The notes beneath the pieces are model-generated. The model saw only the letters and a program-made list of their open reading frames with translations. It searched no databases and was not told the origin of the DNA. Shown here in pieces: positions 23,576 through 58,483 of a stretch of DNA of 64,000 nucleotides; the stretch's first letter is position 1, and each line of letters opens with the position of its first letter. The position numbers were made by a program, and so were the translations under genes. Source of the DNA: Candidatus Aminicenantes bacterium (lineage in GTDB: Bacteria > Acidobacteriota > Aminicenantia > Aminicenantales > JAFGBC01); the NCBI GenBank assembly GCA_963702005.1, contig OY969696.1, positions 2,336,001-2,400,000 on the forward strand. Direction: 5' to 3'.

Positions 23576-23613
23576 GGAGGCTCGGCAAGGGGCTCGCCGT
23601 GGACGGAGCGGGC

Positions 23614-24474
23614 ATGGATCGGCCGCCGTTAAAAACCGTCGTCGTCACCGGCGCTTCGAGCGGAATCGGCCGCGCGACGGCGCTGGCCCTCGACAGGGCC
23701 GGCTTCCGGGTTTTCGCCGGCGTCCGGACTCGTGAGGCGGCCGAATCCCTGCGCAGGGAAGCGTCCTCCCGGCTGGCCGCGCTCCGGTTGGATGTGACCG
23801 ACGCCGACGAGGTCGCGACGGCGGCCGAGGAAGTCCGCTCGGCCGCGGGGCCGGAGCCGGAGCTGGCGGCCCTGGTCAGCAACGCTGGGATCGTGTCCGC
23901 GGTCGGCCCGCTCGAATTCATCGGGACGGAGGCCGTTCGACTCCAGCTCGAGGTCAACCTCATCGGCCATCTCACGGTCGTGAAAGCGTTCCTTCCCCTG
24001 CTCAGGATGTCCCGGGGACGGATCGTCGTTATCGGTTCCGGCAACGGCCGGATGCCCCTTCCTCTGCTGGGTCCTTACGACGCGGCCGAGCACGCTCTCG
24101 AGGCCGTCTGCGATGTTCTACGCGCGGAGCTCCGGCCCTGGCGGATCCGGGTCAGCCTGATCGAACCGAGCCTAACCCGAACGGCCCTTTGGGAAAAAGG
24201 CGAAAGGGCGACCATCAAACCGGACGACATGGAGCCTCCCGACGTCCGGGACATTTACGCCCGGATGATTGAGAAAGGCTGGGGCTTGATGAGGAGGATG
24301 TACCGGCGCTCGGCGGCTCCGCCCGAGCGGATCGCCGCCGCGGTGCTCAAGGTCCTGAAGAGCCGAAGACCGAAAGCCCGCTATGCCGTCGGTCCCTTCT
24401 CAAGGCTGTTTCGTTTCTTTCCGCTCCTGCCCAAACGGGTCCTGGATTATTTCAACGACATCGTCCTTCGCTGA
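23614..24474 (+). CDS. SDR family oxidoreductase
   Basis: VTGASSGIG, SNAG; catalytic YxxxK reads YDAAE. Confidence 0.85.
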   Translation: MDRPPLKTVVVTGASSGIGRATALALDRAGFRVFAGVRTREAAESLRREASSRLAALRLDVTDADEVATAAEEVRSAAGPEPELAALVSNAGIVSAVGPLEFIGTEAVRLQLEVNLIGHLTVVKAFLPLLRMSRGRIVVIGSGNGRMPLPLLGPYDAAEHALEAVCDVLRAELRPWRIRVSLIEPSLTRTALWEKGERATIKPDDMEPPDVRDIYARMIEKGWGLMRRMYRRSAAPPERIAAAVLKVLKSRRPKARYAVGPFSRLFRFFPLLPKRVLDYFNDIVLR

Positions 24475-24490
24475 GGACCGGTCGCCGCGC

Positions 24491-25570: not shown

Positions 25571-25623
25571 CGAATTCTCATATTATCAAGCCGCAAGGCC
25601 CGTTGTCCACACTTCATTCGCGA

Positions 25624-27221: not shown

Positions 27222-27224
27222 TCG

Positions 27225-27251
27225 CGAATTAAGTCGTGTGTCCCCGGAATT
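27225..27251. repeat. 27-bp inverted repeat, left copy (REP-like)
   Basis: cgaattaagtcgtgtgtccccggaatt; reverse complement of 30298-30324 at 26/27. Confidence 0.8.
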
Positions 27252-27330
27252 GACCGGGGAGAGGGGCTGTGCTATATCTAAGGACGGTCCGACGCCTCCG
27301 CGCCGGTCCTATCGTCCCATGGAGATTTCA

Positions 27331-28606
27331 ATGGCCCGAGTCCGTTTTGCGCCCAGCCCGACCGGATTCCTCCACGTCGGGAGCGCGCGGACGGCCGTCT
27401 TCAACTGGCTGTTCGCCCGCCGCTACGGCGGACGCTTCCTGCTCCGGATCGAGGACACCGATCAAAAGAGGTCCGAGGCGCGCTATCTCGAAGAGATCCT
27501 CAAGGACCTGCGCTGGCTGGGGATCGATTGGGACGAGGAGCCCGTCTTCCAGAGCCGGCGCTTCGACGTCTACCGGGCCAAGGCCGAGGAGCTTATCGCC
27601 GCGGGCCAAGCTTACCGAGAAGGGGAGGCCGTCCTGTTCCGGGTCGAGAAAGGGCGGACGATCGAATACAAGGACATGATCCACGGCTCGATCGCCTGGC
27701 AGACGGACGACATCAAGGACCAGGTCTTGATCAAGTCCGACGGCTCCCCCTCTTACAACTTCGCCTGCGTCGTGGACGACTCGTTCATGGGGATCAGCCA
27801 TATCCTGCGCGGCGACGATCACATCTCGAACACGCCCAAGCAGATCCTGCTCTACGAGGCCTTCGGCCTCCGGCCCCCCGAGTTCGGGCACATGCCGCTC
27901 ATCCTGGGACCGGACGGTTCCAAGCTCTCCAAGCGCCACGGCGGAGTGTCCGTCGAGGAGTACAAGGGCGAAGGGTTCCTTCCCCAAGCTCTGGCCAACT
28001 ACCTGTTTCTGTTGGGCTGGTCGCCCGGCGAAGGGCGCGAGGTCCTGACCCTGGGCGAGGCGGTCAAGATCTTCGAGGTCTCGGCCATGAACGCCGTCCA
28101 GGCTAAGTTCGATGTCCAGAAGCTCCGCTGGTTCAACGCCGAATACATCATGAAGGCCGAGGCGGACGAGCTCTTGCCCCTTCTCAGGACCCAGCTCCTC
28201 GAGGCCGGCACCGAACTCGCGCCCTACGACGACGCCTATATCGGCCGGGTTCTCGATCTTTATCGGATTCGGATCAAGACGCTCCGCGAGTTCCCGGCCA
28301 TGACCGAATATTTCTTCCGGGACGATTTCGCCGCCGAAGACGAGGGCAAGGTTCTTCTCGCGGACGCCGTCAACCGGGAGCGGATCGCCCTCCTGGCCGG
28401 CCGCCTCGAGAGCGTCGACCCGTTCGGCCGCGAAGCCCTCGAGAAGCTCTTCCGGGAAACGGCCGCCGAGCTCGGGATCAAGTCCGGCCAGCTCATCCAT
28501 CCCGTCCGGATGGCCGTCAGCGGCCGGAGCAAGGGGGCGGGACTGTTCGAGATGATGGAAGTCCTGGGGAAGGCCGTCGTCCTTCGCCGACTGAGGAGAG
28601 TCGCTC

Positions 28607-28629
<23 letters not shown>
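27331..28629 (+). CDS. gltX: Glutamate--tRNA ligase
   Basis: [32 protein letters not shown]; anticodon-binding domain present. Confidence 0.95.
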
Positions 28630-30295
<1,666 letters not shown>

Positions 30296-39415: not shown

Positions 39416-40786
39416 TCAGGCGGCCGGGGCTTTCCGGCGGTTTTTCCAGATGAGATAGACGGGGACGCCGATCGCGATCAGGGCCAGGCCGGCGAAGGAA
39501 TTCCAGAAGGTCCGGATCAGGGAATTGACTGTCAGGAAAACGGACGAGAGGATGAACAGGATCGCTGTCGCCGGATACCCCCACGTTTTATAGGGCCGCG
39601 GCAGGTCGGGGCGCTTCTTGCGAAGGATGATGACGCCGGCCACGGTCAAGCCCATGAAGATCCAGAATCCGAAGATGACGTAAGAATAGAGCTGCTCGAA
39701 GCTGCCGCTCAGGCTGAGCAGGGCCGCCCAGGACGCGAGCATCATGATGGAGATATAGGGCGTTAGATACCTGGGATGGACTTTGGCGACGCTTCTAAAG
39801 AACAAGCCGTCTTTGGCCATGGCGTAGAAAACCCGGGGCGTCGTCAGGATGTGGCCGTTGGCCGTGCCGGTCATGGACATCAGGATGATCAAGGCAACGA
39901 CCGAAGCCCCGACCGGGCCGAGGGCTTCTTCCATGACGTCGGCGGCGATCCGGCCGGACTCGGCCATCCGGGCGGCCGGGAACACGTAGAGGTAGGCGAG
40001 GTTGGCCAGGATATAGAGGAAGACGACCGACAGGCTGCCGATGAAGAGCCCGAGCGGAAGATTTTTTTTGGGATTTTTGATCTCGCCGGCGCTGTAGGTG
40101 CTCGTCTCCCATCCTTTATAAGCCCAGAGCGCGGCGACCATGGCCACGCCGAAGCTGCTCAGGATTCCGCCGGCCGGCGGCGCCGCCGGCCCCGATGAGA
40201 GGAAGTTCCCGGTCGAGCCTTTGGCGAACATGAAGACGACGGCGCAGACGCCGATGAGCCCGATGAACTTGATCCCGGTCAGGAAGTTCATCAGCAAGGC
40301 GCCTTTCTTGACGCCGAGGATGTTGACGAAGGCCAGGATCGCGATCAGGCCGACCGCGACGACCTTGGTCTGAAGACCCGACAGGTTGACGAAATAGGGA
40401 AGATATTTCGAGGAGAAGCCGACGGCCAGTGTGGCGACGGTGCCGGATTCGATGACCAGGAAGAGGGCCCATCCGAACAGGAAGGCGACGAGCGAACCGT
40501 AGGCCTCGCGGAGATAGACATAGATGCCGCCGGCCTGGGCATAGGACGCCGCCAGCTCGGAGATGGCCAGGGCGCCGAAGAAGCTCAGGATCCCCGCCGC
40601 GACCCAGACGGCCAGCATGAGCTCGGGCGTTCCGACGTCCTTGGCGACCTTGGCGGGATTGATGAAAATGCCGGATCCGATCATGGTCCCGACGACGATC
40701 CCGATAATGCTGAGCAGGCCGAGGACCCGGGGCAGTTCGGGCCCCGTCGAGGAGGGCGGTTGGAGATTGGCTTTTGCCGGGTTCAT
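39416..40786 (-). CDS. APC-family amino acid permease
   Basis: GTMIGSGIF, AGGIYVYL, WAYKGW, GEIKNP, RPYKTWGYP; about 12 TM helices. Confidence 0.92.
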   Translation of the reverse strand: MNPAKANLQPPSSTGPELPRVLGLLSIIGIVVGTMIGSGIFINPAKVAKDVGTPELMLAVWVAAGILSFFGALAISELAASYAQAGGIYVYLREAYGSLVAFLFGWALFLVIESGTVATLAVGFSSKYLPYFVNLSGLQTKVVAVGLIAILAFVNILGVKKGALLMNFLTGIKFIGLIGVCAVVFMFAKGSTGNFLSSGPAAPPAGGILSSFGVAMVAALWAYKGWETSTYSAGEIKNPKKNLPLGLFIGSLSVVFLYILANLAYLYVFPAARMAESGRIAADVMEEALGPVGASVVALIILMSMTGTANGHILTTPRVFYAMAKDGLFFRSVAKVHPRYLTPYISIMMLASWAALLSLSGSFEQLYSYVIFGFWIFMGLTVAGVIILRKKRPDLPRPYKTWGYPATAILFILSSVFLTVNSLIRTFWNSFAGLALIAIGVPVYLIWKNRRKAPAA

Positions 40787-40882
40787 GGAACCTTTATAAT
40801 TCGGAAAGGCCGGCCGAGGCAACCGGTTTCTTGCGGCTTGAGGCCGCGGGCGGATTCATCTATTTCGCGACTCGGAAAGAAC

Positions 40883-42226
40883 CTAAGTAACGAGGGATCG
40901 GACGACTCGGAAGGAAGGGTCGCCCGCGCCCGGGATCTCGGAGACGGCGTCGACCGAGAGGCCGACGGCCGGCCCCAGGATCGCGGCCAGCGCGGCGGCG
41001 GCCTTTTCCTTCAAAGCCTCTCTGCCGACGTCCGTCGCCGCCCCTCTTCCGGGAACGATGAGAATCCTGACCTTGTCGCGCGCATCCTGGATGACTTGAA
41101 AAGCCGCGATACCGTCGATGGCTTCCAGCGCGAGCGTCAGGCTGTAGGGATGAACGGTCCTTCCGTCCGGCAGCCGGAACGTCTCGGGCCTCCGTCCCTT
41201 GATGCGGGCAAGGCGCGGCCAGTGATTTCCGCAGGGGCACGGTTCCGGCGCGAAGGCGGCTCGATCCCCCAAGCCCGCATAGCGGATGATCGGCGTCGAA
41301 CGGTTCCAGAGATCTGTGACGACGACGTCGCCCTCGGACCCGGGCGGGGCCGGCCGTCCGTCGCGGAGGATTTCGAGAATGACCTCGTTGGCCTGGACAT
41401 GGAGGCCTTTATGCGATCCGCATTCGATGGCGATCGAGACGGCCTCGACGCTGGCATAGATATTGAAGATCTCCCCGGCGAAGACCTCGCCGGCGGTCTT
41501 GCGCATTTCGGACGTCAGGGGCTCGGCCGAGACCGCCCAGGCCGCCGGCTGATAAGGCGGCGAACCTCCGCTCCGCTTGAGGACTTCCTCGGTAAGGAGC
41601 ATGAGAACGCTGGGGTAGCTGAAGACGATATCGGGCCTGGTTCGGTTTAGAGCGGCCAGGATCTCCGCCGGATTCGTCCGGGCGTCGATGAAGCTCCAGA
41701 TCCCGGGAAGGAGTCTGAGGAATCCGGGACTGGATTCCGTAATGGCCAGTTCGATCGATTCGTGGTCGACCGCGAAGACGGCCAGGATTCGGGGGAAGCG
41801 CGGCCTGTTCCAGCGCAGCTTGAGCGCCATGGGCAGCGCGATTTTCAGGAGCGCGTGGCGGGCAAGGAGGGCGCGGTCCTTGAAGACCGTGAGGGGGACG
41901 CCCGTCGATCCCGATGTCTTGACGGGGCGGAACCGGCGGGACGACAGGGAGGCGTCCAGGATATCGCCCGGAGCGCTTTGGGCGAGCTCGCGCTTGGTCA
42001 GGAGGGGAAGCCGGCTCAGGTCGTCGAGGGAACGAATCTCCTCCGGGCGGAGGCCGGCCTCGTCGTATTTTCGCCGATAGAGGTGGACGTTTGTATAGGC
42101 GGTTCTGACCAAGTTTCTGAGCATCCGGCCTTGCCATTCCCGGATGAAACCTTCGTCGGTCTTTCTTCTCGTCCCGAGGATGGCGGCGATTTGACGTCCC
42201 CACCTCGCATAGTCGCGCGGCGTCAT
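40883..42226 (-). CDS. Phenylacetate--CoA ligase family (PaaK/CapK-like) protein
   Basis: LPLLTK, KTSGSTGVP, YASVE, PIIRY..GD, CPCG..GR. Confidence 0.8.
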   Translation of the reverse strand: MTPRDYARWGRQIAAILGTRRKTDEGFIREWQGRMLRNLVRTAYTNVHLYRRKYDEAGLRPEEIRSLDDLSRLPLLTKRELAQSAPGDILDASLSSRRFRPVKTSGSTGVPLTVFKDRALLARHALLKIALPMALKLRWNRPRFPRILAVFAVDHESIELAITESSPGFLRLLPGIWSFIDARTNPAEILAALNRTRPDIVFSYPSVLMLLTEEVLKRSGGSPPYQPAAWAVSAEPLTSEMRKTAGEVFAGEIFNIYASVEAVSIAIECGSHKGLHVQANEVILEILRDGRPAPPGSEGDVVVTDLWNRSTPIIRYAGLGDRAAFAPEPCPCGNHWPRLARIKGRRPETFRLPDGRTVHPYSLTLALEAIDGIAAFQVIQDARDKVRILIVPGRGAATDVGREALKEKAAAALAAILGPAVGLSVDAVSEIPGAGDPSFRVVRSLVT

Positions 42227-43431
42227 GCGTTTTTCCCATCGACGGTGGGGCGCAGGACATTTTTTTTAAAGTGGGATTGGAAGGCCGGTCTGAAGAGCCG
42301 CCGGACGAGGACGGATGCCCATCCGGTGGACAGCCCGCCCGGAATGAATCGTCTTGGGAATCGTTCGGCATTCCGCTTGACGAGGAGGAACCGTTCGGCG
42401 GCCAGCTGGCGGGCGCAGTCCTCGAGCGGCATCCGTTCCCGGGCCGCCCTCTCCAGAAGGGAGCGGACGATCGCGCCGTAGCGGCTTCGGATGAAGGAGT
42501 CCGCGAATCGGGCGTCGCCGATGACGGCGTCCAGGGCCGTGCCGACGACTCCTCCGCAGTTGGCGACGAAGTCGGGAACAGCCAGGATCTTTTTTTCGGC
42601 CAGGATACGCCCGGCCTCCTCCGTCCAGGCCAGGTTGGCGCCGGGCACGATCAGCCGGGCGGCGATCCGGCCGGCATTGGCGCCGTTGATCGAGAAGGGC
42701 CTGGCGCAGGGCGCGAGGATATCAACCTCGAGTTCGAGGAGCTCCTCGCGCTCGATCCGGACGGCCTTCCCGAGCTCCTGGATCAGGCCCGAGCCCGCCT
42801 TTTCGGACGCGGCATGGAGCTCGGAGAAGTCGAATCCCCGTTCACGATAAATGGCGCCTCGCTTCGTCGAAAGGGCGACAATCTTGACCCCCAGCGAAGC
42901 CAGGACAGCCGCGGCGGCGCTCCCGACCGCTCCGAAGCCTTCAATGGCGGCGGTCAGGCCGTCCACCCCGAAACCGAGAAACCGGGCAGCCTCGGCCGCT
43001 GCCAAGCCGACCGTAAGTCCCGTCCAGGCACCCGAGTCGATAGGACCGAATAGCCGCTTTCGTCCGGCCGCCCGCAGCAGGCTCTCGATATCCCGGCCGG
43101 TCGTCCCCATATCGGTCCAGGGAAGATAGCGGATGTCGCCCGCAAGTGACCTCAAGCCTCGTCCGAAGGCTTCCAGGGATTGTCTTTTAGCTTCGGCGGG
43201 CATCTCGGGGTCCGCGATGATCCCGGCCTTGGCGCCGCCCAGCGGCAGGCCGACGAATCCGTACTTCAGCGTCATAAGGCGCGCCAATCCCGCCACTTCA
43301 TCGGCCGTAACGTCCGGGTCCATCCGAACGCCGCCGCAGCAGGTTCCGTTGACGGTCGAATCGACCGCGATGAAGCCGAGAAGGCGGGACCTCTCGTCCC
43401 GGATTTCATGGAGGCTGGGGTCTTGGATCAC
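42223..43431 (-). CDS. Glu/Leu/Phe/Val dehydrogenase family protein
   Basis: GGVRM, MTLK, GGAKAG, DMGT, EGFGAVG, PDFVANCGGV. Confidence 0.88.
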   Translation of the reverse strand: MIQDPSLHEIRDERSRLLGFIAVDSTVNGTCCGGVRMDPDVTADEVAGLARLMTLKYGFVGLPLGGAKAGIIADPEMPAEAKRQSLEAFGRGLRSLAGDIRYLPWTDMGTTGRDIESLLRAAGRKRLFGPIDSGAWTGLTVGLAAAEAARFLGFGVDGLTAAIEGFGAVGSAAAAVLASLGVKIVALSTKRGAIYRERGFDFSELHAASEKAGSGLIQELGKAVRIEREELLELEVDILAPCARPFSINGANAGRIAARLIVPGANLAWTEEAGRILAEKKILAVPDFVANCGGVVGTALDAVIGDARFADSFIRSRYGAIVRSLLERAARERMPLEDCARQLAAERFLLVKRNAERFPRRFIPGGLSTGWASVLVRRLFRPAFQSHFKKNVLRPTVDGKNA

Positions 43432-44110: not shown

Positions 44111-45088
44111 ATGAGAAAAGCGCTCGCAATCATCATCCTGGTGCTGGTGGCCTTCGTCGGGGTTTCTTCGGCTAAGGCAACCGTCCTTAAGGTCAAGGTT
44201 CAGACGGCCAACGTCCGGTCGGAGCCGGATACGTCGGCCTCCGTCGTCGCCCAACTCAAGGTCGGAACCCTGATCGAAGCCAGGTCCAAGGTCGACTCCT
44301 GGTATGAGATCTCCGTCACGGGCAAGAACGGCGAGGAGATCGTCGGCTACATCCACGCCAGCGTCGTCGAAATCGTCGGCGGCGAAACCCCCGCGCCCCA
44401 GGAACCCCGGCCGGCTCGAACGGAACCGGCTCGCGAGGTTTCCAAACCCGCGCCGAGCTACGCCCGGGCCGCCGCCCCGTCCGGCGCCAAGAAGTTCAAG
44501 ATCATGGCCGGGTTGGCCATGGCCAACCAAAGGCTGGACAGCGACAGCCAAAAAGCTATCGATGATAGCGGCCTGACCAAGGGCAATTTGATGGGGATCG
44601 GAGCCGGCGTCGGCTACGAATTCAGCCTGTCCCAGAATCTGTTCCTCGAGTTGGACGGCTTTTTCGTCCCGGGCGGCGTGAAAGTCTCCGGCAAGTACTT
44701 AGGCACGGACATTGTGGCGAAGACGCACGGCAGTGCCGTCGGCGCCGGCCTGCTCGGCAAGTTCAAGTTCATGCCGGAGGGCTCCACGCCCTATGCCATG
44801 GTCGGCGCGGATGTCGGCTACGTCCTGTCCATGAAGGCGAAGACGGACAGCGGCTCGGAAAAAGGAACGGACGAGGACATTCTCAAGAACATCAACCGGA
44901 TGTACTACGGCATCGACCTGGGGATCGGGTACGAGCTCGAGTTGAGCGGCATGACCTTCGTCATCGAGGGCCGCTATCTGATGGGGCTCAGCAATATGCT
45001 CAAGAAGCCCGCCGAGGTCGCGGACAAGGATTGGAAGAGCTACGCCAAGCCCACGACCATGGGCTTCATGGTCGGCATCAAGCTCTAA
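44111..45088 (+). CDS. SH3b domain plus outer membrane beta-barrel protein
   Basis: Signal peptide, ANVRSEP..WYEI..GYIH (SH3b), Pro-rich linker, beta-barrel ending GFMVGIKL. Confidence 0.8.
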   Translation: MRKALAIIILVLVAFVGVSSAKATVLKVKVQTANVRSEPDTSASVVAQLKVGTLIEARSKVDSWYEISVTGKNGEEIVGYIHASVVEIVGGETPAPQEPRPARTEPAREVSKPAPSYARAAAPSGAKKFKIMAGLAMANQRLDSDSQKAIDDSGLTKGNLMGIGAGVGYEFSLSQNLFLELDGFFVPGGVKVSGKYLGTDIVAKTHGSAVGAGLLGKFKFMPEGSTPYAMVGADVGYVLSMKAKTDSGSEKGTDEDILKNINRMYYGIDLGIGYELELSGMTFVIEGRYLMGLSNMLKKPAEVADKDWKSYAKPTTMGFMVGIKL

Positions 45089-45205: not shown

Positions 45206-46354
45206 TCAGGGGAGGTGGTCGGCAAGCTCGGGGTCGAACCTGGGGCCGACCTCGCGGCGGAACCGTTCGAGCTTGCCGCGCAGCCCGTCGCGGCCGAGCT
45301 TTCTCATCCGGGCAACCGGACCTTCGGTCATGCCCAGGGCGTCCTGAACTCCGAAATCGAGGTCGTCGGCTTCGGCCCTTCCCAAGGAAAGGATGAATAG
45401 CGTGGCTGCCATGATGACGAGGTTCAGACGCTCGAGGCAATCCTTCCCCCTAGACGGCCCCGGCGAATGACGCTGTCCGGGATCGACGTAATAGTCGAGG
45501 GGGCTTTGGCCGGGCGACTCCCCGCTATAGAGAAAGACGCCCCGGCCCGCGTCCCGTCCGGTTCGGCCGTCGGCCAAGAGCTTGGGGACGAGCGCGGGCA
45601 GCGGGATGTTTGGGGGCCTGATCTCCGAGGTCCGGTCGAAAACGTCGCGGAAGAAAGCGATACCGACCGTGTCCAGGGCTTCGCAGGGACCGACCCGGAA
45701 TTCGCGCTCGGCCAGCCGGTCGATGTCTCCGGGTAGGGCCAGGCCCTGCTCCAGGATGTAGAGGGCCTCGCAGGAATAGCAGCCGATGATGGGGTTGAGG
45801 ACGGATCCGGGGCAGTCCTTGACGATGAGGGGGCGGCGTCCGAGACGGGCGCTGACGTCGGCGGCGATCTCGAGCGCCCGGGACGAAAGGCCGTCCCAGC
45901 GGATGATCTCGATCGTCGAGGTCAAAAGGACCGGGTTGATGAAATGAAACCCGCAAAATCGTTCGCCCCTGGCCAGGGCTCCGGCCAGGCGGGCCAGGGA
46001 AAATGAGGATGTGTTGGAGGCGATGACCGCGTCCGGAGCGACCAGGGATTCCACGGTCCCGAGGACCCCCGCTTTGAGGTCGAAATCCTCGGGGAGGCAT
46101 TCGATGATGAACCCGCAATCCGTCAGGACGGCCGGGTCCGTCGAGAACAGGATTTTTCGGTTCCGCGCCTCGTCCCGGCCGGGGACCGCTATCCCCTGGC
46201 GAACACGCCTCTCGAGCCGCCTCGCATACCGGTCCTGGCAGCGGGCGGCTTGTTGCGGGGTCCGGACGACGACGGCGAGATCGAATCCCGCCGCGTCGAA
46301 AAGGTTGAAGGCGCTTTGTCCCATCTTGCCGTAGCCGATGATCCCTACCTTCAT
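45206..46354 (-). CDS. 3-hydroxyacyl-CoA dehydrogenase family protein
   Basis: GIIGYGKMG, IIECLPED..LK, ASNTSS, GFHFINP; duplicated C-terminal domain. Confidence 0.88.
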   Translation of the reverse strand: MKVGIIGYGKMGQSAFNLFDAAGFDLAVVVRTPQQAARCQDRYARRLERRVRQGIAVPGRDEARNRKILFSTDPAVLTDCGFIIECLPEDFDLKAGVLGTVESLVAPDAVIASNTSSFSLARLAGALARGERFCGFHFINPVLLTSTIEIIRWDGLSSRALEIAADVSARLGRRPLIVKDCPGSVLNPIIGCYSCEALYILEQGLALPGDIDRLAEREFRVGPCEALDTVGIAFFRDVFDRTSEIRPPNIPLPALVPKLLADGRTGRDAGRGVFLYSGESPGQSPLDYYVDPGQRHSPGPSRGKDCLERLNLVIMAATLFILSLGRAEADDLDFGVQDALGMTEGPVARMRKLGRDGLRGKLERFRREVGPRFDPELADHLP

Positions 46355-46400
46355 CGGGGCCTCCTCCCCGACGGCGGCGCCTGCGCTGCCGACCCTGCCG

Positions 46401-47018
46401 TCAGCCGCCATACGCCCCGGAGATCTTGTCCAAGGATTTCCGGCCCGTCCGGACCTCGGGCTCGCCCGGCTCCGGATAGCCGACGGCCAGAAGAGCGGCA
46501 ATCGTGCCCCTGACCCCGAATTCTTGACTGAAGCGGCGGGCGAGGCTCTCGCCGGCCATGATCCAGACCATGCCCAGCCCCAGGGCTTGGGCCATGAGCC
46601 ACATGTTTTCGACGGCGCAGGCGACCGCGTCCTGCTCGGCGCGGACGTAGTTTTTGTAGTAGAGGCGTCCGATCAATCCCTGGATTTTCTTGAGGCGGCC
46701 CGAGAGGTGGCCCATGTTCCAGACGGCGATGACATGCGGGGCTTCCTTCAGGATCCGGGCCGCGTCGGCGGCGATCGCCCGGAAGCCGGGGATTTGAATG
46801 CTCCGGACGCGCGAGGCGATGATCCGTCCGGCTTTCTCCGTGTCCGCGCCCGAGATGACCAGGAAATACCAAGGCTGAGAGTTGGTGGGGGAGGGGGCGA
46901 GCCGACCCGCGTCCAGGACTTCGCGGAGGAGCCCGGCCGGAACCGGCTCGGGCTTGAAACGGCGGATGCTCCGTCGTTCCGCGAGAATACTCTTAAGCGC
47001 GGCGGCCCTCGGGTTCAC
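46401..47018 (-). CDS. Nitroreductase family flavoprotein
   Basis: RRSIRRFK, APSPTNSQPW, ENMWLMAQALGLG, AVGYP; GTG start overlaps the fabF stop. Confidence 0.88.
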   Translation of the reverse strand: MNPRAAALKSILAERRSIRRFKPEPVPAGLLREVLDAGRLAPSPTNSQPWYFLVISGADTEKAGRIIASRVRSIQIPGFRAIAADAARILKEAPHVIAVWNMGHLSGRLKKIQGLIGRLYYKNYVRAEQDAVACAVENMWLMAQALGLGMVWIMAGESLARRFSQEFGVRGTIAALLAVGYPEPGEPEVRTGRKSLDKISGAYGG

Positions 47019-48256
47019 GGTGCTTTCTCCAGGACCAGGGAACAGTTGTGGCCGCCGAACCCGAAGGAATTCGAAAGGGCCGCCTTCAGGTCCGGGGCCG
47101 GACGGGCCCGGTTGGGGACGTAGTCGAGATCGCAATCCGGGTCCGGCTCCCGATAGTTGATGGTCGGCGGAATGATCCCTTCGTGGAGGGCGAGGGCCGT
47201 GGCCGCGCACTCGATGGCGCCCGCCCCGCCGATCGTGTGTCCGATCATGGATTTCTGGGAGGAGACGGCCAGATGGGCGGCGTGGGCCCCGAAGACTTGC
47301 TTGATGGCGACCGTCTCGCTCAGGTCGTTGTGGCGGGTCGAGGTCCCGTGGGCGTTGATGTAGCCGACGGCTTGGGGCGGAAGGCTGGCGTCCTCGAGAG
47401 CCGAGGTCATGGCTCGGGCGATCTCCTTGCCGCTGGGCTCGGGCGCCACGATGTTGTAGGCTTCCGAAACGATACCGACGCCGGTCAGGACGGCATAGAT
47501 CCTCGCCTCCCGGCGGCGGGCCGCCTCCAGGGACTCGAGGACGAGGGCCGCCCCGCCGTTGGCCAGAACGAATCCGCCGCGCCGGTTGTCGAAGGGGCAG
47601 GACGCCTCTTCGGGCGCGCTGTTGTTTTCGGACAGGGCCAGGAGCTCGCTGAATCCTTGGATGCTCTGCCGGTTGAGCATCATGTCGGCGCCCAGGACGA
47701 CGGCCGCGTCGCCCCGTCCGGCCCGGATGAAGTCGATGCCGGCCGCGATGGCGAACGCGCCCGAAGCGCAGGCCGCGGCGACATTGTAGGTCGGTCCCTT
47801 GAGCCCGTACTTGATCGAGATCCAGGCCGAGATGGCGTTGACCATTTCCTTGACGATGAGATATTTGACGCCGTTCCCCTGGACCAGCTCTTGGCCTTCC
47901 TGGAGAAGGGACTGGCTGCAGCCTGAGATGACGGCGACGCGGTAGGGGTCGAACGGCGAGGCGAGGATGCGGCTGTCCTGGAGGGCTTCCTTGGCGCACA
48001 GGAAGCCGAGCCTGGCCGGAGGCAGGGTTTGGTTCCGAAGACGGCGGGGGAACTCGGCCTCTTCCAGCTTATAATAAGCGTCGGGGAGTTCCCCTCCGAT
48101 CCGGGTCGCCAGCCCTTCCGTGTCGAAGCGGGTGATCCTCCGGATCCCCGAGCGGGCTTCGCGCATCCCCTTCCAGGTCGAAGCGGCGTCGGGTCCGAGA
48201 GGCGTGATCATGCCGACGCCGGTAACGGCCACGGAAGGAATCCCGAGACGGGCCAT
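47015..48256 (-). CDS. fabF: Beta-ketoacyl-ACP synthase II (FabF-like)
   Basis: AACASG, NAHGTST, KSMIGH, SNSFGFGGHN (Cys-His-His triad). Confidence 0.88.
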   Translation of the reverse strand: MARLGIPSVAVTGVGMITPLGPDAASTWKGMREARSGIRRITRFDTEGLATRIGGELPDAYYKLEEAEFPRRLRNQTLPPARLGFLCAKEALQDSRILASPFDPYRVAVISGCSQSLLQEGQELVQGNGVKYLIVKEMVNAISAWISIKYGLKGPTYNVAAACASGAFAIAAGIDFIRAGRGDAAVVLGADMMLNRQSIQGFSELLALSENNSAPEEASCPFDNRRGGFVLANGGAALVLESLEAARRREARIYAVLTGVGIVSEAYNIVAPEPSGKEIARAMTSALEDASLPPQAVGYINAHGTSTRHNDLSETVAIKQVFGAHAAHLAVSSQKSMIGHTIGGAGAIECAATALALHEGIIPPTINYREPDPDCDLDYVPNRARPAPDLKAALSNSFGFGGHNCSLVLEKAP

Positions 48257-48567
48257 CAGGCGGTTCCTTCGATGATGCCTTCGCCCTTTTCCACAATATC
48301 GTAGACGGCTTGGGCCGTCTCGCTCACCGTCCGGATCGGGTGCTTTTGGAAGTATTTCCCGATGACCCGGATTTCGATCGTGACGCTGAACTTTTTCTTG
48401 AACTCCTCGATGAGCTCGAGGTAGATGATGGAGTCCCCGCCCAGGTCGTCGATGATTCTCGTCTGCGGCTCGATCTTGTCAAGGGGGATGCCCAGCTCAT
48501 CGGACAGGAACTGGCGGATGTGCTCGTAGATCTGCTTTTTTTCGTCTTCGCTGAGGACGCGGTTCAT
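48256..48567 (-). CDS. Acyl carrier protein
   Basis: DDLGGDSIIYLEL phosphopantetheine Ser motif; acidic, 103 aa. Confidence 0.85.
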   Translation of the reverse strand: MNRVLSEDEKKQIYEHIRQFLSDELGIPLDKIEPQTRIIDDLGGDSIIYLELIEEFKKKFSVTIEIRVIGKYFQKHPIRTVSETAQAVYDIVEKGEGIIEGTA

Positions 48568-49268
48568 GAATGACTCCTTTCAAACAACCAGGCGACGGCC
48601 AGAACCCAGCCGGGCCCGACGCGATAGCGACCGGACAGGACGCGGCCGTCTCCGCTTTCGATGCGGCAGAGCGTCCCTTCGACCCGACGGACCGCGCTGT
48701 TCAGGGCTCCTCCCAGGCCGGTCCCGAGCGCCTTGGACGCCGCTTCTTTGAGGGTCCAGAGGACGGCCCCTTGATCCGCGGCTTCAAGGTCCGGGTCCGC
48801 CTCGTCCTCGGGCCGGATGAAGGCCGAACACAGGCGGGCCCAACCGGCCGAACGCATCACCAGGTCGGCGCCGACTTGGACGCCCGAGGCGGGCATCCAG
48901 GCCGACAGGGCCAAGCGGCCCGCGTGGGATAGGGCGCAGTCGATTCGGGGCGCTCCGTCCCGCCGGGATCGAATCCTTAGCCGGGGCCGGCCTTGATCAT
49001 CCTTGCCGACCTCGCAGTCCTGCGGATTCCGGATGATCCGCTGCCTCAGGAGCGATTCTTTTAAGCAAACCCTGGCGGCCAGCCATTCCGTCTTCCTGCG
49101 CTCCGAGCCGAGACGGCCGCGCTCGGTCCTTTCGGCCGGCGTCAGATGGGTTTGTTCGCAATCCGAGAGTCCGGCCGCTTCATTCCATTCCAGGATGCCG
49201 ACGACGGTCTGATTTTCCAGCAGAGGCCAAGGCTGTGCGAAGTTAAAAATACGCGCCTTCGGGATCAT
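48564..49268 (-). CDS. Sfp-type 4'-phosphopantetheinyl transferase
   Basis: EWLAAR..K, GRP, SHAG, GADL, WTLKEAASKALGTGL; start uncertain. Confidence 0.8.
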   Translation of the reverse strand: MIPKARIFNFAQPWPLLENQTVVGILEWNEAAGLSDCEQTHLTPAERTERGRLGSERRKTEWLAARVCLKESLLRQRIIRNPQDCEVGKDDQGRPRLRIRSRRDGAPRIDCALSHAGRLALSAWMPASGVQVGADLVMRSAGWARLCSAFIRPEDEADPDLEAADQGAVLWTLKEAASKALGTGLGGALNSAVRRVEGTLCRIESGDGRVLSGRYRVGPGWVLAVAWLFERSHS

Positions 49269-49320
49269 CCTCAAAATCATATTAGCATACTTCGGGGGAA
49301 GGTCCAACCCGCCGAAAGAA

Positions 49321-50049
49321 TCAGGATTTATTCGGGGGCGGGAAAGGAAGCAGGCGGATGAAGCTGTCGATGGCGTCCCCGATCCCGGCGTCGGCCGCGA
49401 CCTCCGGGATGAGCCCCAAGAGCCTGATCGTCTCCCGAAGGAGCTCGGGGTCGACCATGAGCAGAGTGCGGGCAAACGCCTTGACCCGGTCCAGGAAAGC
49501 GTCTCGGGGAAGGATCCGGTTGACGAGGTTGAGACGGTACGCTTCTTCGGCCGTGATGAGGTCTCCCAGGGCGATGAGCTCAAGGGCCTTGGCGCGGCCA
49601 ACGAGGGCGGCCAGCCTGGAAATCCCTCCCAGCCCGGGGAGGAGGCCGCTGGTGAGCTCCGGAAGCCCCATCCGGACCTTCGCGGCGCAGAGACGAAACT
49701 GGCAGGCCAGGGCGATCTCGAGCCCCCCGCCGAAGCAATGTCCGTTGATGGCCGCGATCGTCGGTTTCGTCGAACGGGCCAGCCTGGCCAGGACCCGGTT
49801 GCCCGCCTCAATGTCCCGGCGTGCTTCCTCGGCGCCCGTCCAGGACCGAATGACCTCAAGGTCGAAACCGTAGGAGAAGACGGCGCCGGTTCCGGTCACG
49901 ACGGCGGCGTCCATGCTCGAGTCGAGAAGGTCGAGGGCCTCGTCGAATTCCTCGAGGAGCGATGGGGTCAGCCGGTTCTCGGGGGGCCGGTCGAGAGCGA
50001 GGATCAGAAGGCCGCGCTCGCGGGTCAGATGGAGGAAACGGGCCCTCAC
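49321..50049 (-). CDS. Enoyl-CoA hydratase/isomerase family protein
   Basis: FSYGFDL, AAINGHCFGGGLEIALAC, GLPE..GLLPG. Confidence 0.9.
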   Translation of the reverse strand: MRARFLHLTRERGLLILALDRPPENRLTPSLLEEFDEALDLLDSSMDAAVVTGTGAVFSYGFDLEVIRSWTGAEEARRDIEAGNRVLARLARSTKPTIAAINGHCFGGGLEIALACQFRLCAAKVRMGLPELTSGLLPGLGGISRLAALVGRAKALELIALGDLITAEEAYRLNLVNRILPRDAFLDRVKAFARTLLMVDPELLRETIRLLGLIPEVAADAGIGDAIDSFIRLLPFPPPNKS

Positions 50050-51197
50050 GCGGGGCCTCGCCGGGCCGGATCGCCGCCGGTTCTATTTTCGCCGGCGTAT
50101 TCCAGGACGAATCCTGCGTGCATCCATTTGGAGGATTCGCTGACGAGGCTCATGACGAGATCTCCGGGGCGCAGCGCGACCTCGCGCCTGAACTCGTCGA
50201 GGGCGATCAGGATGGCGGGCGGCCCCGGGTAGCCCTGATCGGCGAGCTTGGTGTAGAGGGCGACGTCTCGGAAACGGGCGTCTTTCTTGAGGCTATCGAC
50301 GAGGAGGTCGTTGAGGTGACGGGTCGGGATGTTGGCCAGGAAATAGCGGACCCGGGAGAGATCGACGCCGGTCCGGGCGATCATCGCGTCTTTGGCCTCC
50401 TTGAACAGCTGCGGCGAAATCTTGGCCACCGATTCGAAGTTCTGGTTGAGGTGGTGCCAGCCTTTTTCGTAAACCTCGAGGGGCTGACAGCGATGGCCTC
50501 CCATGACGCAGTACATATCCGGCCCCAGCCCGAGTCCCGACGATTCGACGAAGGTGTCCACGATTCTGAATCGATTCGGACCCTGCGGCCGCGACGTCAG
50601 GACGAGGGCCCCGGCCCCGTCGCTGAGAAACCAGCGGAGCAGGATCTGTTTTTTTTCGAGGACGGCCTGGTTGAAGAACTCGGCCCGGAGGAAGGCCGAG
50701 GAGACCTGGGAAGAGACGACGAGCGCGTTCCGGTAGCGCCCGATCCGCAGAAAGTCGGCCGCGACCTGGATGGCCTTGTAGATGGAGGTGCAGTTGGAAT
50801 GGATCGAAAACTCGGCGCAGCGCGGGATCTTGAGCTCTTCCTGAAGGAGGACGGTCGTGGGTGGGCAGGCGTATTCCATGGCGATGCCCGCGAAAAGGAT
50901 GAGGTCGATGTCCTCGGGCTTGAGCCCGGCTTCGTCCAGGGCCTTCCGGGCGCTCCGGACGGACATGGTTAGGTTGTCGTCGGTCGGCCGGCGGGTTATA
51001 GGGTCGAGAGCGTAATGATAAAAGCGGATGCCGAGGAGCTCCTTGAAGATGGGCCGGACCCGTTCAATCCAGGCGCGAAGCTTGGCCGGGGCCCGGTCGA
51101 GCGGGCCCAGAACACGATCAGCCTCATCGAATGGGACGGGCGCCCCGGGCAAGGCCGACCCGACCCCGCTGATATAGACGTCGTTGAGCTCGGCCAT
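50046..51197 (-). CDS. KS III (FabH/DarB-StlD-like) condensing enzyme, non-canonical
   Basis: VYISGVGSALPG, HSNCTS (Cys), LRWFLSDGAGA, ESSKW; His/Asn positions read NIPT and GYPG. Confidence 0.75.
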   Translation of the reverse strand: MAELNDVYISGVGSALPGAPVPFDEADRVLGPLDRAPAKLRAWIERVRPIFKELLGIRFYHYALDPITRRPTDDNLTMSVRSARKALDEAGLKPEDIDLILFAGIAMEYACPPTTVLLQEELKIPRCAEFSIHSNCTSIYKAIQVAADFLRIGRYRNALVVSSQVSSAFLRAEFFNQAVLEKKQILLRWFLSDGAGALVLTSRPQGPNRFRIVDTFVESSGLGLGPDMYCVMGGHRCQPLEVYEKGWHHLNQNFESVAKISPQLFKEAKDAMIARTGVDLSRVRYFLANIPTRHLNDLLVDSLKKDARFRDVALYTKLADQGYPGPPAILIALDEFRREVALRPGDLVMSLVSESSKWMHAGFVLEYAGENRTGGDPARRGPA

Positions 51198-51282
51198 CTT
51201 TGGACGATTATTATACATTGTTTTTCGACCGCCTCCCAGGGGCGTTTGGACAGAAAGCCGCCGCTATGCTATAAAATACGTC

Positions 51283-52494
51283 ATGAGAGCGAAGCCGCTC
51301 ATCGCCGTCCGGTCCTGGGGGTCCGTTTCCGCGCTCGGGACCGACCCGGCCCGGATCCTGGAAAGCTACAAAGACAAAAAGAGCCTGGCCGTCCTGCGGA
51401 CGTTCAACGGCCTCGCCCAGCCCGTCGTCCCCCTCGGACCGGACGGGGAGGCTCTTCTCAAGGACGTCGTCGGCCGCGTCCCCAAGACCAGAAGGTTCGA
51501 CCGCTGCGTGCTGATGGCCGTCGCCGCCTCCGAAAGCGCTTTCCGCGCCAGCGGCTGGGAGGCCGACAAGGACCGCCTCCAGATCGGCGTCAACATCGGT
51601 TCGTCGCGGGGCGCGACCGGTTTCTGGGAGAGAAGCTACGAGGAATTCCTCCGTTCGCCCGGAGAGCGGACGCCCATCCTGACCTCGCCGCTGACGACGT
51701 TGGGCCATCTTTCGAGCGCCGTGGCGAACGTCCTCGTCCTCGAAGGCCCCATCATCTCCTCCTCGATGACCTGCAGCACGGCCGCCCAGGCCGTTTTCAA
51801 CGCCATGGCTTGGCTCAAGGCCGGCATGGCCGATCGCTTTCTGGCCGGAGGCAGCGAAGCTCCCTTGACACCCTTCACGCTGGCCCATGTCGGAGCCCTG
51901 GGCATCTTATCGGACAAGGCGAGCGATCCCTACCCCTGCCGGCCCTTGGCCGCCGAACCGGATGACAACACGGTCATCGTGGGGGAAGGCGCCTGCGTTT
52001 TCGCCTTGGAGGCCTTGCCGCCCGGCCGGCTAGCGGCGGCTCGAGTCGCCGGGATTATCGAGTCCATCGGCTACGGATTCGAGAAGATCCCTTCTCCGGT
52101 CGGCCTGACCCCGGAGGGGGAGGCCCTCCGGAAAGCGATGGCCATGGCCCTCCACGGACAGATGACGAACCCTCCGGTCGACCTCGTCATCATGCACGCG
52201 CCAGGGACCCTCCAGGGCGATGAGGCCGAGCTCACCGCCCTCCGCCGCGTTTTCGGGGACTCCCTCCCCGACCTCTATTCCAACAAATGGAAGATCGGCC
52301 ATACCTTCGGGGCGTCGGCGGCCTTCAGCCTTGAGCTGGCCCTACTCGTCCTCCGTCATCAGCTCGTCCTCAGCTTTCCCTATCCAAGCCTAGTCCGGAA
52401 TAGGGGCGGAATCGTCCGAAAAGTCATGGTCAATTCGACCGGTTTCGGGGGGAACGCGGCCTCGTTGATTGTGTCCTCGTCCAGCCTGTTCTGA
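51283..52494 (+). CDS. Beta-ketoacyl synthase (FabB/FabF-like), divergent from the cluster
   Basis: GSSRGAT, SMTCST, MHAPGT, KWKIGHTFGAS, NSTGFGGN. Confidence 0.85.
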   Translation: MRAKPLIAVRSWGSVSALGTDPARILESYKDKKSLAVLRTFNGLAQPVVPLGPDGEALLKDVVGRVPKTRRFDRCVLMAVAASESAFRASGWEADKDRLQIGVNIGSSRGATGFWERSYEEFLRSPGERTPILTSPLTTLGHLSSAVANVLVLEGPIISSSMTCSTAAQAVFNAMAWLKAGMADRFLAGGSEAPLTPFTLAHVGALGILSDKASDPYPCRPLAAEPDDNTVIVGEGACVFALEALPPGRLAAARVAGIIESIGYGFEKIPSPVGLTPEGEALRKAMAMALHGQMTNPPVDLVIMHAPGTLQGDEAELTALRRVFGDSLPDLYSNKWKIGHTFGASAAFSLELALLVLRHQLVLSFPYPSLVRNRGGIVRKVMVNSTGFGGNAASLIVSSSSLF

Positions 52495-52594
52495 GGACGA
52501 AGGGAGGCGGGATGCTCGGTCACTTGAATTTTTCCCCGTTTTTTGGTATCTTATCGCATCGTCCCGGCAAACCCGACCAAGGAGACAGATCCCT

Positions 52595-52999
52595 TTGAGA
52601 AATTACGGCGACGTCGATAGCAAATTCCGTTTCGTCATCCTGGCCGCTAAGAGGGCCAAGCAACTCCTCAAGGGCGCCAAGCCCAAGGTCAAAACGCGAT
52701 CCCGCAATCCGATCCGGATCGCTCAGATGGAGCTCCAGGACGGCCTCATCGAATACAACATCGTCACGGACGTCAAGGAGGATGTTCCCGAGGTCGAGGA
52801 GCAGGTTTTTCTCGGAGATGACCTGGGAGGGGACATCGATACCGGCGACGTCGCGGCCGGACATGACGAGGACGAGGAGAAAGAGGCCGAACCGGAGCAC
52901 GGGGAAAAGGGCGAGGGAGAGGGCGAGGAAGAGGAGGGCGACGAGGAAGAGACCGGCGGCGAGGGCGGCGGGGGTGGCGGGGGGGGCGAGGAAGCTTAG
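52595..52999 (+). CDS. rpoZ: RNA polymerase omega subunit with long acidic tail
   Basis: DSKFRFVILAAKRAKQL...NPIRIAQMEL; TTG start after AAGGAG; upstream TTGAAT-17-TATCTT. Confidence 0.88.
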   Translation: MRNYGDVDSKFRFVILAAKRAKQLLKGAKPKVKTRSRNPIRIAQMELQDGLIEYNIVTDVKEDVPEVEEQVFLGDDLGGDIDTGDVAAGHDEDEEKEAEPEHGEKGEGEGEEEEGDEEETGGEGGGGGGGGEEA

Positions 53000-57308: not shown

Positions 57309-58310
57309 CTACCATCGGATGACGGCCGAGGCCCAGGTAAACCCGGAGCCGAAGGCGGTCAGGACGACCAGGTCCCCGGCCTTGATGCGGCCGTCCTTGA
57401 CGGCTTCGTCGAGCGCGATCGGGATCGAAGCGGCCGTCGTGTTGCCGAGCCGGTCGATGTTGCGGATGACCTTCTCGGGGGCGATCTTGAGCTGCCGGGC
57501 GACCATCTGGCTGATCCGGTCGTTGGCTTGGTGGGGGATGAGGTGGTCGACTTGGTCGATGGTCAGGCCGTTGTGGCGGAGTCCGGCCAGGACGGCCTCG
57601 GGCATCTTCTCCACGGCGTTCTTGAACACGTTCTTCCCGTCCATCTGGGGGAAGAATTTGCCGGTCTGGAGGAGTTCCGGCGAAAAGGTCGGCTTATCCT
57701 TGGAGCTGGGCTTTTCCATGCAGAGATCCGCGACATGCCGGCCGTCGGCGAAAAGATGAGTCGAAAGGACGCCCCGCCCCTTGGCGGCCTCGGCCGGCTC
57801 CAGGATGACGGCGCCCGCGCCGTCTCCGAACAGGACGGCCATGTCGCGGCCCGAATCCGAGTAATTGAGGTTGTGGGATTGGACCTCGGCGGCGACCAGG
57901 AGGATCTTTTTGAAGGTGCCCGTCCTGATGTATTGGTCGGCGGCCGACAGGCCGTAGATGAACCCGCTGCATTGGGCGCGAACGTCGAGCGCCCCGATTT
58001 CCGCCAGCCCCAGCTTGGCCTGAATCATGACCCCGATGCCGGGGAAATAGTGGTCGGGCGAGATGGTCGCGGCGATGATGAAGTCGATCTCGGACTTGTC
58101 GATCCCGGCGTCGGCGATAGCCCGCAGCGAGGCCTCGACACCCAGGTCCGAGCTTCCGATCCCGGTCTCGGCATGACGACGGGTGAGGATGCCCGATCGC
58201 TGACGGATCCACTCGTCGGACGTGTCCATGAGCTTGGCCAGGTCTTCGTTGGTGACGACATCCGGGGGGACGTAGTGGCCGGTGCCGGTGATGACCGTCC
58301 GTGTGTTCAT
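57309..58310 (-). CDS. fabH: 3-oxoacyl-ACP synthase III
   Basis: DTSDEWIRQRSGI, AQCSGF, LFGDGAGA, PHQAN, GNTTAASIP, AFGSGFTW. Confidence 0.93.
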   Translation of the reverse strand: MNTRTVITGTGHYVPPDVVTNEDLAKLMDTSDEWIRQRSGILTRRHAETGIGSSDLGVEASLRAIADAGIDKSEIDFIIAATISPDHYFPGIGVMIQAKLGLAEIGALDVRAQCSGFIYGLSAADQYIRTGTFKKILLVAAEVQSHNLNYSDSGRDMAVLFGDGAGAVILEPAEAAKGRGVLSTHLFADGRHVADLCMEKPSSKDKPTFSPELLQTGKFFPQMDGKNVFKNAVEKMPEAVLAGLRHNGLTIDQVDHLIPHQANDRISQMVARQLKIAPEKVIRNIDRLGNTTAASIPIALDEAVKDGRIKAGDLVVLTAFGSGFTWASAVIRW

Positions 58311-58483
58311 TTCAGGTCCGGGCAATTATAATCAAAAGAGAAGAAAAAATAAAGGCGGATTTTTTTAATAAATTGGATATTACGTATTTTTGGATATCGG
58401 AGTCTCTCCCCGCCCGCCGGGAGGATGACGTGTTGACCGCGCGGAAGGGAGCGGATATCATGTTCTTGAGGACCGGATCGGGA

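Follow-up and report, generated by a model that had tools for sequence, protein, structure and literature searches.

Which pathway is encoded when a bacterium gathers ketosynthases and an acyl carrier protein (ACP), as in type II fatty-acid or polyketide synthesis, into one cluster with enzymes of the beta-oxidation type? This question is raised by positions 45206-52494 of a 64,000-nucleotide stretch of the genome of a Candidatus Aminicenantes bacterium, which was analysed at its full length and is called the window here. The cluster resembles a type II fatty acid synthase (FAS) or polyketide synthase (PKS), and it is built around KS3, a protein akin to KAS III (beta-ketoacyl-ACP synthase III). 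It is real, intact, widely conserved and uncharacterised, and both its anatomy and its conservation are solid. As to its function, we favour, at a probability of roughly 40%, an insulated, ACP-based reducing pathway of the FAS/PKS kind. An enoyl-CoA hydratase (ECH) and a 3-hydroxyacyl-CoA dehydrogenase (HADH) would act as its dehydratase and ketoreductase, a nitroreductase-fold flavoprotein (NTR) as its enoyl reductase, and KS3 would load acyl groups without decarboxylation. The product would probably be a specialised lipid, and possibly a sulfated one.

Gene content and conservation of the cluster

Seven genes are read from the minus strand between 51218 and 45206, and their domains were assigned by profile searches against Pfam and NCBIfam. 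The operon begins with KS3 itself (50046-51218, ACP_syn_III). There follow, in order of transcription, ECH (49321-50049, ECH_1, E 1e-36), an Sfp-type 4'-phosphopantetheinyl transferase of 238 residues (PPTase; 48564-49280, ACPS, E 8e-11), and a dedicated ACP of 103 residues with its serine in a GGDS motif (48256-48567, PP-binding). Next come a FabF-like ketosynthase (KS; 47015-48256), whose 417 bits with the fabF model fall below the equivalog cut-off of 494 and above the PRK07314 subfamily cut-off of 387, then NTR (46401-47018, Nitroreductase, E 7e-29), and finally HADH (45206-46354, 3HCDH_N and 3HCDH). Beyond a divergent intergenic region of 64 bp (51219-51282), which is presumed to hold the promoters and in which a sigma-70 scan found no site, the plus strand encodes KSx (51283-52494), a divergent KS of the KAS I/II type recognised through Pfam, NCBIfam and a check of its catalytic triad. 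Overlaps of 4 bp join KS3 to ECH, PPTase to ACP, and the FabF-like KS to NTR, ACP overlaps the FabF-like KS by 1 bp, and the remaining gaps in the operon measure 40 and 46 bp. Directly after the HADH stop codon, a terminator-like hairpin on the minus strand (45194-45166; 12 pairs, 10 of them G-C, then a T-rich tail) closes the operon. All eight frames are open and their catalytic motifs are intact, the active site of KS3 being altered. The GC content ranges from 0.57 to 0.67 across the window (in 2-kb steps) and from 0.63 to 0.67 over 45206-52494. Domains and coordinates thus bear out an earlier, preliminary description of the locus as eight tightly coupled genes on these strands. The genes that it delimited stand, whereas its outer limits at 46501 and 51184 are those of the longest open reading frames (ORFs), and the starts likely lie further in.

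A Pfam scan of 45206-52494 found no FabG, FabZ or FabD domain, and a true FabH lies apart at 57309-58325 (389 bits against a cut-off of 249), both as previously described. The genome (G000), a single contig of 4.31 Mb that is 94% complete, keeps its housekeeping FAS genes elsewhere: FabD at 1.43 Mb, FabZ at 2.42 Mb, and FabF at 0.48 and again at 3.41 Mb, the second copy being adjoined by a FabK-like gene. This separation supports the cluster as a discrete accessory pathway, and it agrees with the specialised pathway proposed at the outset.

The preliminary description had made its case depend on the gene set being kept together in other genomes, and this is what was found. All eight genes recur in identical order in G003, a genome of the same order and a different family, with amino-acid identities of 41-74% (KSx 58%, KS3 65%, ECH 54%, PPTase 41%, ACP 74%, FabF 71%, NTR 61%, HADH 42%), so that the grouping exceeds chance. 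Seven of them, KS3-ECH-PPTase-ACP-FabF-NTR-HADH, stand in the same order on a metagenome contig (L018). A single-protein search of genome contigs gave 3 loci, and a metagenome search with a KS3 alignment gave 80, which together with the genome loci make 85 KS3 loci. Neighbours were counted where at least 5 kb of sequence flanks KS3 on either side, as is the case in 28 loci, that of the window among them. The genes were called as homology-supported ORFs and labelled by tblastn. The core consists of ECH (28/28), a KAS I/II-type KS (27/28), ACP (25/28) and HADH (25/28), joined by a FabD-like acyltransferase in 21 loci and a PPTase in 14. A FabI-type reductase is found in 12 of the 28 and NTR in 3. 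Less constant companions are type III PKS (10), sulfotransferase (9) and B12-radical-SAM (7) genes, as well as ABC (11), FtsX (7) and LolA-like (7) genes. Where the distance could be judged, ECH lies no more than 400 bp from KS3 in 35 of 47 loci. Taken across loci, the predicted content is that of a complete FAS-like set in which ECH and HADH replace FabZ and FabG, and it fits the earlier proposal that beta-oxidation-type enzymes take over the ketoreductase and dehydratase steps. Among all 85 loci, NTR is present in 4 and FabI in 20, none having both. In a close relative (L023; KS3-ECH-PPTase-ACP-FabF-HADH-FabI), FabI occupies the slot that NTR has in the window.

The distribution of the cluster is patchy within the lineage and broad outside it. 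A KS3 orthologue was found in two of 41 related genomes, G000 and G003, the others giving matches at FabH level only (next-best E-value 1e-20), and in one of 401 genomes sampled evenly across the phylum (E <= 1e-60), which is G000 itself. KSx is present in three of the 41 (G000, G002 and G003). Two genomes of the same genus, G001 and G002, yielded no KS3, and KSx occurs in G002 yet not in G001. In G002, which is 83% complete, KSx lies at a contig end and the remaining 177 bases hold no KS3 start. DNA sequencing runs with matches are wetland and sediment metagenomes, with no RNA run among the 8 listed. The cluster family as a whole is spread over Aminicenantes, Desulfobacterota, KSB3, Chromatiales and others, in anoxic sediments and wetlands.

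The altered active site of KS3

KS3 had been set beside the DarB/StlD-type enzymes, and membership of that family is not upheld. Its best NCBIfam model is indeed the StlD/DarB family beta-ketosynthase (NF005293), as it is for 20 of 20 KS3-family members tested, all of which score far below the cut-off (best E-value 1.9e-40). KS3 itself reaches 109.1 bits against a cut-off of 450, and proteins that pass score 506-526 bits. Membership of FabH fails as well, with 84.7 and 89.5 bits for TIGR00747 and NF006829 (cut-offs 292 and 249), and thiolase models score far below those of KAS III. When aligned to StlD with phmmer, KS3 retains its cysteine (Cys143), while His302 of StlD, identified as the catalytic histidine through the H302A mutant entry 5gk2, is replaced by Asn296, and the asparagine of the triad by Tyr330. 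Residues C143, H256, Q259, N296 and Y330 are invariant in 52 KS3 sequences, at identities down to 36%, and H255 is present in 51 of them. Partial rows were excluded from this set, and 19 near-full-length rows were dropped, their extracted sequence having run into a stop codon where the tblastn range ends. More distant representatives keep Tyr330 and vary at position 296. Proteins above the StlD/DarB cut-off read PH(F/Y)SS and GNTGSAS at the positions of 296 and 330, and they have the motif LRWxLSDGAGA in common with KS3. Since KS3 keeps the cysteine and lacks the histidine and asparagine of the triad, a decarboxylative condensation of the FabH type should be impossible. From its predicted active site, KS3 cannot serve as a FabH-type decarboxylating primer.

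The AF2 model of KS3 (pLDDT 92.3, pTM 0.91) was compared with the PDB by Foldseek. StlD came first (TM 0.84/0.86), followed by the tetronate enzyme AbyA1, and FabH reached about 0.70 (query-normalised). In an unrooted maximum-likelihood tree of 26 sequences, KS3 forms its own clade (97/92), separate from both the long-branched StlD/DarB clade (100/100) and the clade of FabH and FabH-like proteins (98/95). By branch length it is no nearer to the DarB clade than to the FabH-like proteins, and because the tree is unrooted KS3 cannot be called a sister of DarB. The phylogeny that had been recommended as a check therefore sets KS3 apart. KS3 is a separate KAS III clade, with a StlD-like fold and profile, that fails the tests by which StlD/DarB is defined. 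As for a DarA/StlC-like partner, Pfam and NCBIfam, in which the presence of a DarA model is unverified, gave no match for any of the eight genes or for the recurrent families f8, f14 and f17 described below.

The family is small: a search of 1.84 billion protein clusters (50% identity) gives 44 representatives at E <= 1e-30. The best 120 of 437 matches are 53-73% identical to KS3, and those named among them come from Acidobacteriota, KSB3, Thiococcus and Desulfatirhabdiaceae. The ESM Atlas returned generic KAS III clusters only. A beta-branching cassette with KS3 as its 3-hydroxy-3-methylglutaryl-CoA synthase (HMGS) was considered and rejected: HMGS models cover residues 78-174 only, with 36 bits where 244 are required, and the cassette is also contradicted by the single ECH and by the cysteine kept in both KS.

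The proposed pathway and its rivals

In the pathway that we favour, the Sfp-type PPTase would activate the dedicated ACP. The PPTase is of Sfp size, matches HetI weakly in NCBIfam and is present in the genome in a single copy by tblastn, and the ACP lies below every NCBIfam ACP cut-off. Malonyl units would be supplied by the housekeeping FabD, and the chain would be extended by the FabF-like KS and KSx. Both show Cys-His-His (CHH) in the triad columns, as elongating KAS I/II enzymes do, and appear catalytically intact. With the CHH triad kept in each, pairing them as a KS and a chain-length factor (CLF) was rejected. The closest named homologue of KSx, 77% identical, is from Candidatus Aminicenantes and thereby suggests the lineage.

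The 3-oxoacyl thioester would then be reduced by HADH and dehydrated by the crotonase, in a loop of the beta-oxidation type. Alignment to solved hydratases shows the catalytic glutamates of ECH intact (E111 and E131, in GGGxE and GLPE motifs), and we take them to correspond to Glu144 and Glu164 of the rat enzyme. HADH resembles the C-terminal half of FadB/FadJ, matching residues 311-691 of FadJ, and both of its domains align to solved 3-hydroxyacyl-CoA dehydrogenases. Enzymes of the HADH and crotonase families work on (S)-3-hydroxyacyl thioesters, FabG and FabZ on the (R) form. If these family traits hold here, an (S)-specific loop would insulate the pathway from the (R)-specific FabG and FabZ of the housekeeping FAS, and this stereochemistry would also explain why HADH and the crotonase are so constantly paired. 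The crotonase-fold enzymes FabM and RpfF act on acyl-ACP, and the HADH-fold enzymes FkbK and ZmaG on ACP-bound substrates; for the carrier of ECH and HADH, which may be ACP or CoA, we infer ACP.

The enoyl-reductase slot, FabI-type in sister clusters, would be filled here by NTR. That NTR stands where FabI does elsewhere and never co-occurs with it favours a flavin redox role. This was one of two options in the preliminary description. The other, aromatisation, finds no comparative support, NTR being so rare among the loci. The PDB relatives of NTR are generic NADH oxidases and nitroreductases, with weaker matches to BluB, iodotyrosine deiodinase and albonoursin synthase; the chemistry of the fold thus extends to C=C and other redox reactions. 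As for KS3, it would most likely select an acyl starter and transfer it to ACP, or else shift the chain between carriers. The loader role is preferred because KAS III homologues with altered triads, such as CerJ and DpsC, are acyltransferases.

Finally, a hydroxyl of the chain would be modified by a short-chain dehydrogenase/reductase (SDR) and a sulfotransferase, giving a sulfated lipid. The SDR gene (23599-24474, plus strand) encodes a protein 45-46% identical to the SDR beside the G003 operon. The sulfotransferase (Sulfotransfer_3; 24491-25570, minus strand) is 48% identical to its orthologue in G003 and 45% identical to that in L023, whose gene is directly upstream of KS3. The two genes are convergent in both the window and G003, some 20 kb from the operon in the former and abutting it in the latter. 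SDR orthologues are found in eight KS3 loci, and it is because orthologues of SDR and sulfotransferase recur in such loci that the pair is counted as probable tailoring genes. The core genes of the cluster had thus been described correctly, and this pair (23599-25570) had been missed.

Several observations weigh against the favoured pathway. The tightest partner of KS3 is ECH, which a mere loader does not explain, and what KS3 matches best, by profile and by structure, are enzymes that condense (StlD, AbyA1) rather than acyltransferases. For both ECH and HADH, the nearest relatives with a solved structure depend on CoA. Neither NTR nor FabI is present in 13 of the 28 well-flanked loci. With 3 NTR and 12 FabI genes in these loci, about 1.3 co-occurrences would be expected and the probability of none is about 0.17, so that with so few loci their mutual exclusion is suggestive and not statistically strong. 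No thioesterase or other release enzyme is encoded by the window operon, and the GH3 and methyltransferase genes that the G003 version carries are missing from the genome.

It is possible that KS3 works head-to-head in the manner of DarB and StlD instead, fusing a 3-oxoacyl with a 2-enoyl chain, through Michael addition and Claisen condensation, into a dialkyl-cyclohexanedione, which would be released as such. Both KS would make 3-oxoacyl-ACP, part of which would be turned by HADH and ECH into the 2-enoyl thioester. NTR would later oxidise or reduce the ring, and the hydroxyls would be sulfated, methylated or glycosylated. This would account for the invariable partners KS, HADH and ECH, above all ECH, as the makers of the two substrate types of DarB, given as 3-oxoacyl and 2-enoyl thioesters in passages of two papers (PMC13748660; PMC6836626). 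No thioesterase would be required, and hydroxyls are the targets of all tailoring genes across loci (sulfotransferases, a PEMT-type methyltransferase and a macrolide-type glycosyltransferase). The profile, the structure match and the LRWxLSDGAGA motif point the same way, and DarB homologues without DarA, their product unassigned, have already been noted in cyanobacteria in a section of a 2019 review (PMC6836626). Set against this are the low score with the StlD/DarB model, the replaced histidine and asparagine, the separate clade and the lack of a recognised DarA/StlC-like gene, as well as the rarity of NTR (4/85 loci) and a type III PKS, itself ring-forming, already present in 10 of 28 loci. 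StlD/DarB ketosynthases and the aromatase DarA/StlC belong to the pathways of dialkylresorcinols, cyclohexanediones and bacterial stilbenes. KS3 proteins share a length of about 375-390 residues with the StlD/DarB enzymes, and a dedicated ACP is nearby, as in the classical dar cluster outlined in the same review (PMC6836626). They differ in being consistently accompanied by ECH, HADH and a KAS I/II-type KS, genes that dar and stl clusters can do without. The KS3 family is in this respect a defined and widespread case of DarB-like enzymes without DarA, which are here linked to a characteristic gene neighbourhood.

A bolder claim, which we regard as doubtful, is that KS3 represents a new thiolase-fold class (Cys143/His256/Asn296/Tyr330). 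It would catalyse non-decarboxylative C-C bond or ring formation on the intermediates of a stereochemically insulated FAS with an (S)-specific HADH and crotonase and a nitroreductase-fold enoyl reductase, in a family that makes undescribed sulfated, methylated or glycosylated lipids, possibly of the outer membrane.

An unlikely explanation is a starter module at the CoA level, in which a thiolase-like KS3 would be followed by HADH, ECH and NTR working on CoA esters, as in reverse beta-oxidation, before the FabF-like KS, KSx and ACP took over the acyl group. One turn of reverse beta-oxidation takes four activities, which correspond to KS3, HADH, ECH and a reductase; KS3 is without the residues for malonyl decarboxylation, and every nearest solved relative of ECH or HADH is an enzyme of CoA substrates. 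CoA and ACP substrates are, however, not distinguishable in silico, no thiolase-type second cysteine was identifiable in KS3, thiolase models trail those of KAS III by far, and the operon is without a CoA ligase or acyl-CoA handling gene.

Very improbable is a sulfate-assisted olefin formation, in which a sulfated 3-hydroxyacyl chain would lose CO2 and sulfate to leave a terminal alkene, as is the chemistry of CurM and the olefin synthases. HADH would provide the 3-hydroxyl, and a sulfotransferase is encoded in 9 of 28 well-flanked loci. It is nevertheless absent from most loci and 20 kb from the window operon, no CurM-type thioesterase accompanies it, and the combination of two sulfotransferases with O-methyltransferases in some loci looks like decoration rather than the use of a leaving group. 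Equally hard to credit is a decaying remnant that lost its GH3 and methyltransferase genes and the contiguity of its SDR/sulfotransferase pair and is by now unable to complete its product, for although those two genes are missing relative to G003, an IS110 transposase is nearby and KS3 was not found in G001 and G002, all eight frames are open with intact catalytic motifs, translational coupling and a terminator-like hairpin are in place, and L018 carries the identical seven-gene operon.

Full-text searches of open PMC papers and bioRxiv found no paper describing the KS3 gene set, in keeping with the earlier remark that it was not recognised as a described cluster. Like a canonical type II FAS, the cluster has discrete KS, ACP and KAS III-like proteins, and the full set of activities is present across related loci. 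It differs in that HADH and a crotonase replace FabG and FabZ, that the reductase is FabI-type or nitroreductase-fold, and that KS3 lacks the histidine and asparagine of FabH. The initiation modules of reducing type II PKS (ZhuH/ZhuC/ZhuG, DpsC) and the aryl-polyene and flexirubin systems (ApeO/ApeC, with Lol-like export) offer a second comparison. There too a KAS III-like enzyme, an acyltransferase and a dedicated ACP stand beside the KS, and related KS3 loci add a degenerate, CLF-like KS partner, a thioesterase and LolA/ABC/FtsX export. The window differs from these in having two intact KS, beta-oxidation-type reductive enzymes and no acyltransferase, thioesterase or exporter, and in the Cys/Asn/Tyr of KS3 as opposed to Cys/His/Asn or Ser/His/Asp.

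If the favoured pathway is correct, the cluster would be a compact FAS/PKS machine that swaps the chemistry of FabG, FabZ and FabI for beta-oxidation-type and nitroreductase-fold enzymes, and it would define a KAS III clade that is small and sharply conserved and whose active site has been rebuilt. Since the gene set is found in uncultured anaerobes of sediments and wetlands, an environmental lipid that has yet to be assigned could be its product.

Related loci and neighbouring genes

The architecture of the window is shared by G003 and L018, and L025 has NTR in another order. In a second type, represented by L027, a type III PKS stands between two ECH genes, together with sulfotransferases and a PEMT-like methyltransferase. 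Such a type III PKS with crotonase genes on both sides, beside KS3, is seen in L027 (6901-9706) and likewise in L029, L032, L051, L060 and L065, a layout that recalls DpgA with DpgB and DpgD. By this analogy, an aromatic starter is suggested for the KS3 clusters that bear a type III PKS. A third type, KS-KS3-ECH-ACP-KS'-acyltransferase-HADH, adds ABC, FtsX and LolA genes for export and a YbgC-like thioesterase. A fourth contains a B12-radical-SAM protein, a 4HBT thioesterase, an aldehyde:ferredoxin oxidoreductase, a macrolide-type glycosyltransferase and a dTDP-glucose dehydratase.

Degenerate ketosynthases, reading CNH, SNH, DNH, YNH or AAH in the triad columns, account for 15 of 69 KS sequences from the other loci (L016 13722-14933 is one example, with 14 further KS genes in related loci). 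They sit downstream of the ACP and have lost the active-site cysteine, the first histidine, or both, the upstream KS being intact. Judged by these residues, the degenerate KS after the ACP resembles a chain-length factor, in the layout of reducing type II systems. Three recurrent families have no Pfam or NCBIfam match and are candidates for further pathway steps: f8 (about 478 residues, adjoining a LolA-like gene; L061 6360-7793), f17 (about 325 residues; L062 11916-12890) and f14 (about 177 residues; L087 4629-5159).

The G003 version is larger than that of the window. A GH3-family gene lies in an operon with its KSx (L013 6059-9224), and on the 3' side of HADH there follow a UbiE-like methyltransferase, the SDR, the convergent sulfotransferase, and then an SH3/beta-barrel gene as at the flank of the window cluster. 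The best NCBIfam model of this GH3 protein is OlsH. OlsH is presented in a recent description as a GH3-like lyso-ornithine-lipid synthetase that attaches a 3-hydroxy fatty acid to an amino acid by N-acylation (PMC12493201). Such a fatty acid is an intermediate that the HADH of the cluster would make, and the resemblance hints at an N-acyl amino-acid lipid in G003. The two systems differ in that the G003 protein scores 108 bits (cut-off 620), that an OlsI-like partner was not observed, and that GH3 (PF03321) was not found in the single contig of G000. The same source places about 90% of bacterial GH3 homologues in Bacteroidota (PMC12493201, in the passage on their distribution). KSx homologues at 45-50% identity are likewise mostly from Bacteroidota, where a possible conserved GH3-KS module would be a lead.

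Close to the SDR/sulfotransferase pair, an ORF of 474 residues (25567-26991, minus strand) has no Pfam or NCBIfam match and no homologue in any KS3 locus. It overlaps the start of the sulfotransferase by 4 bp and is therefore probably co-transcribed with it. An IS110-family transposase (18090-19121, plus strand) lies about 4.5 kb from the pair, so that this neighbourhood has been rearranged, and it may be related to the separation of the pair from the KS3 operon. Nearer to the cluster, an apparent operon on the minus strand (39416-43431) encodes a Glu/Leu/Phe/Val dehydrogenase, a PaaK-like AMP-dependent ligase and an amino-acid permease. For the ligase, the model of the DVU_1553 family scores highest (135 bits, cut-off 300), and the flexirubin ligase FlxY is matched more weakly. 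In L045 and L046, a ligase 24% identical to it is encoded near the KS3 cluster. This operon could provide a step that activates the starter acid.

The cluster is bounded by two genes unrelated to it. On one side is an SH3/outer-membrane beta-barrel protein (44111-45088), and on the other rpoZ (52469-52999, plus strand), whose ORF as listed has a long N-terminal extension and a long, acidic C-terminal tail rich in Glu and Gly. Further away, two class I aminoacyl-tRNA synthetase genes of the Glu/Gln type adjoin each other with an overlap of 23 bp (27208-30295, plus strand).

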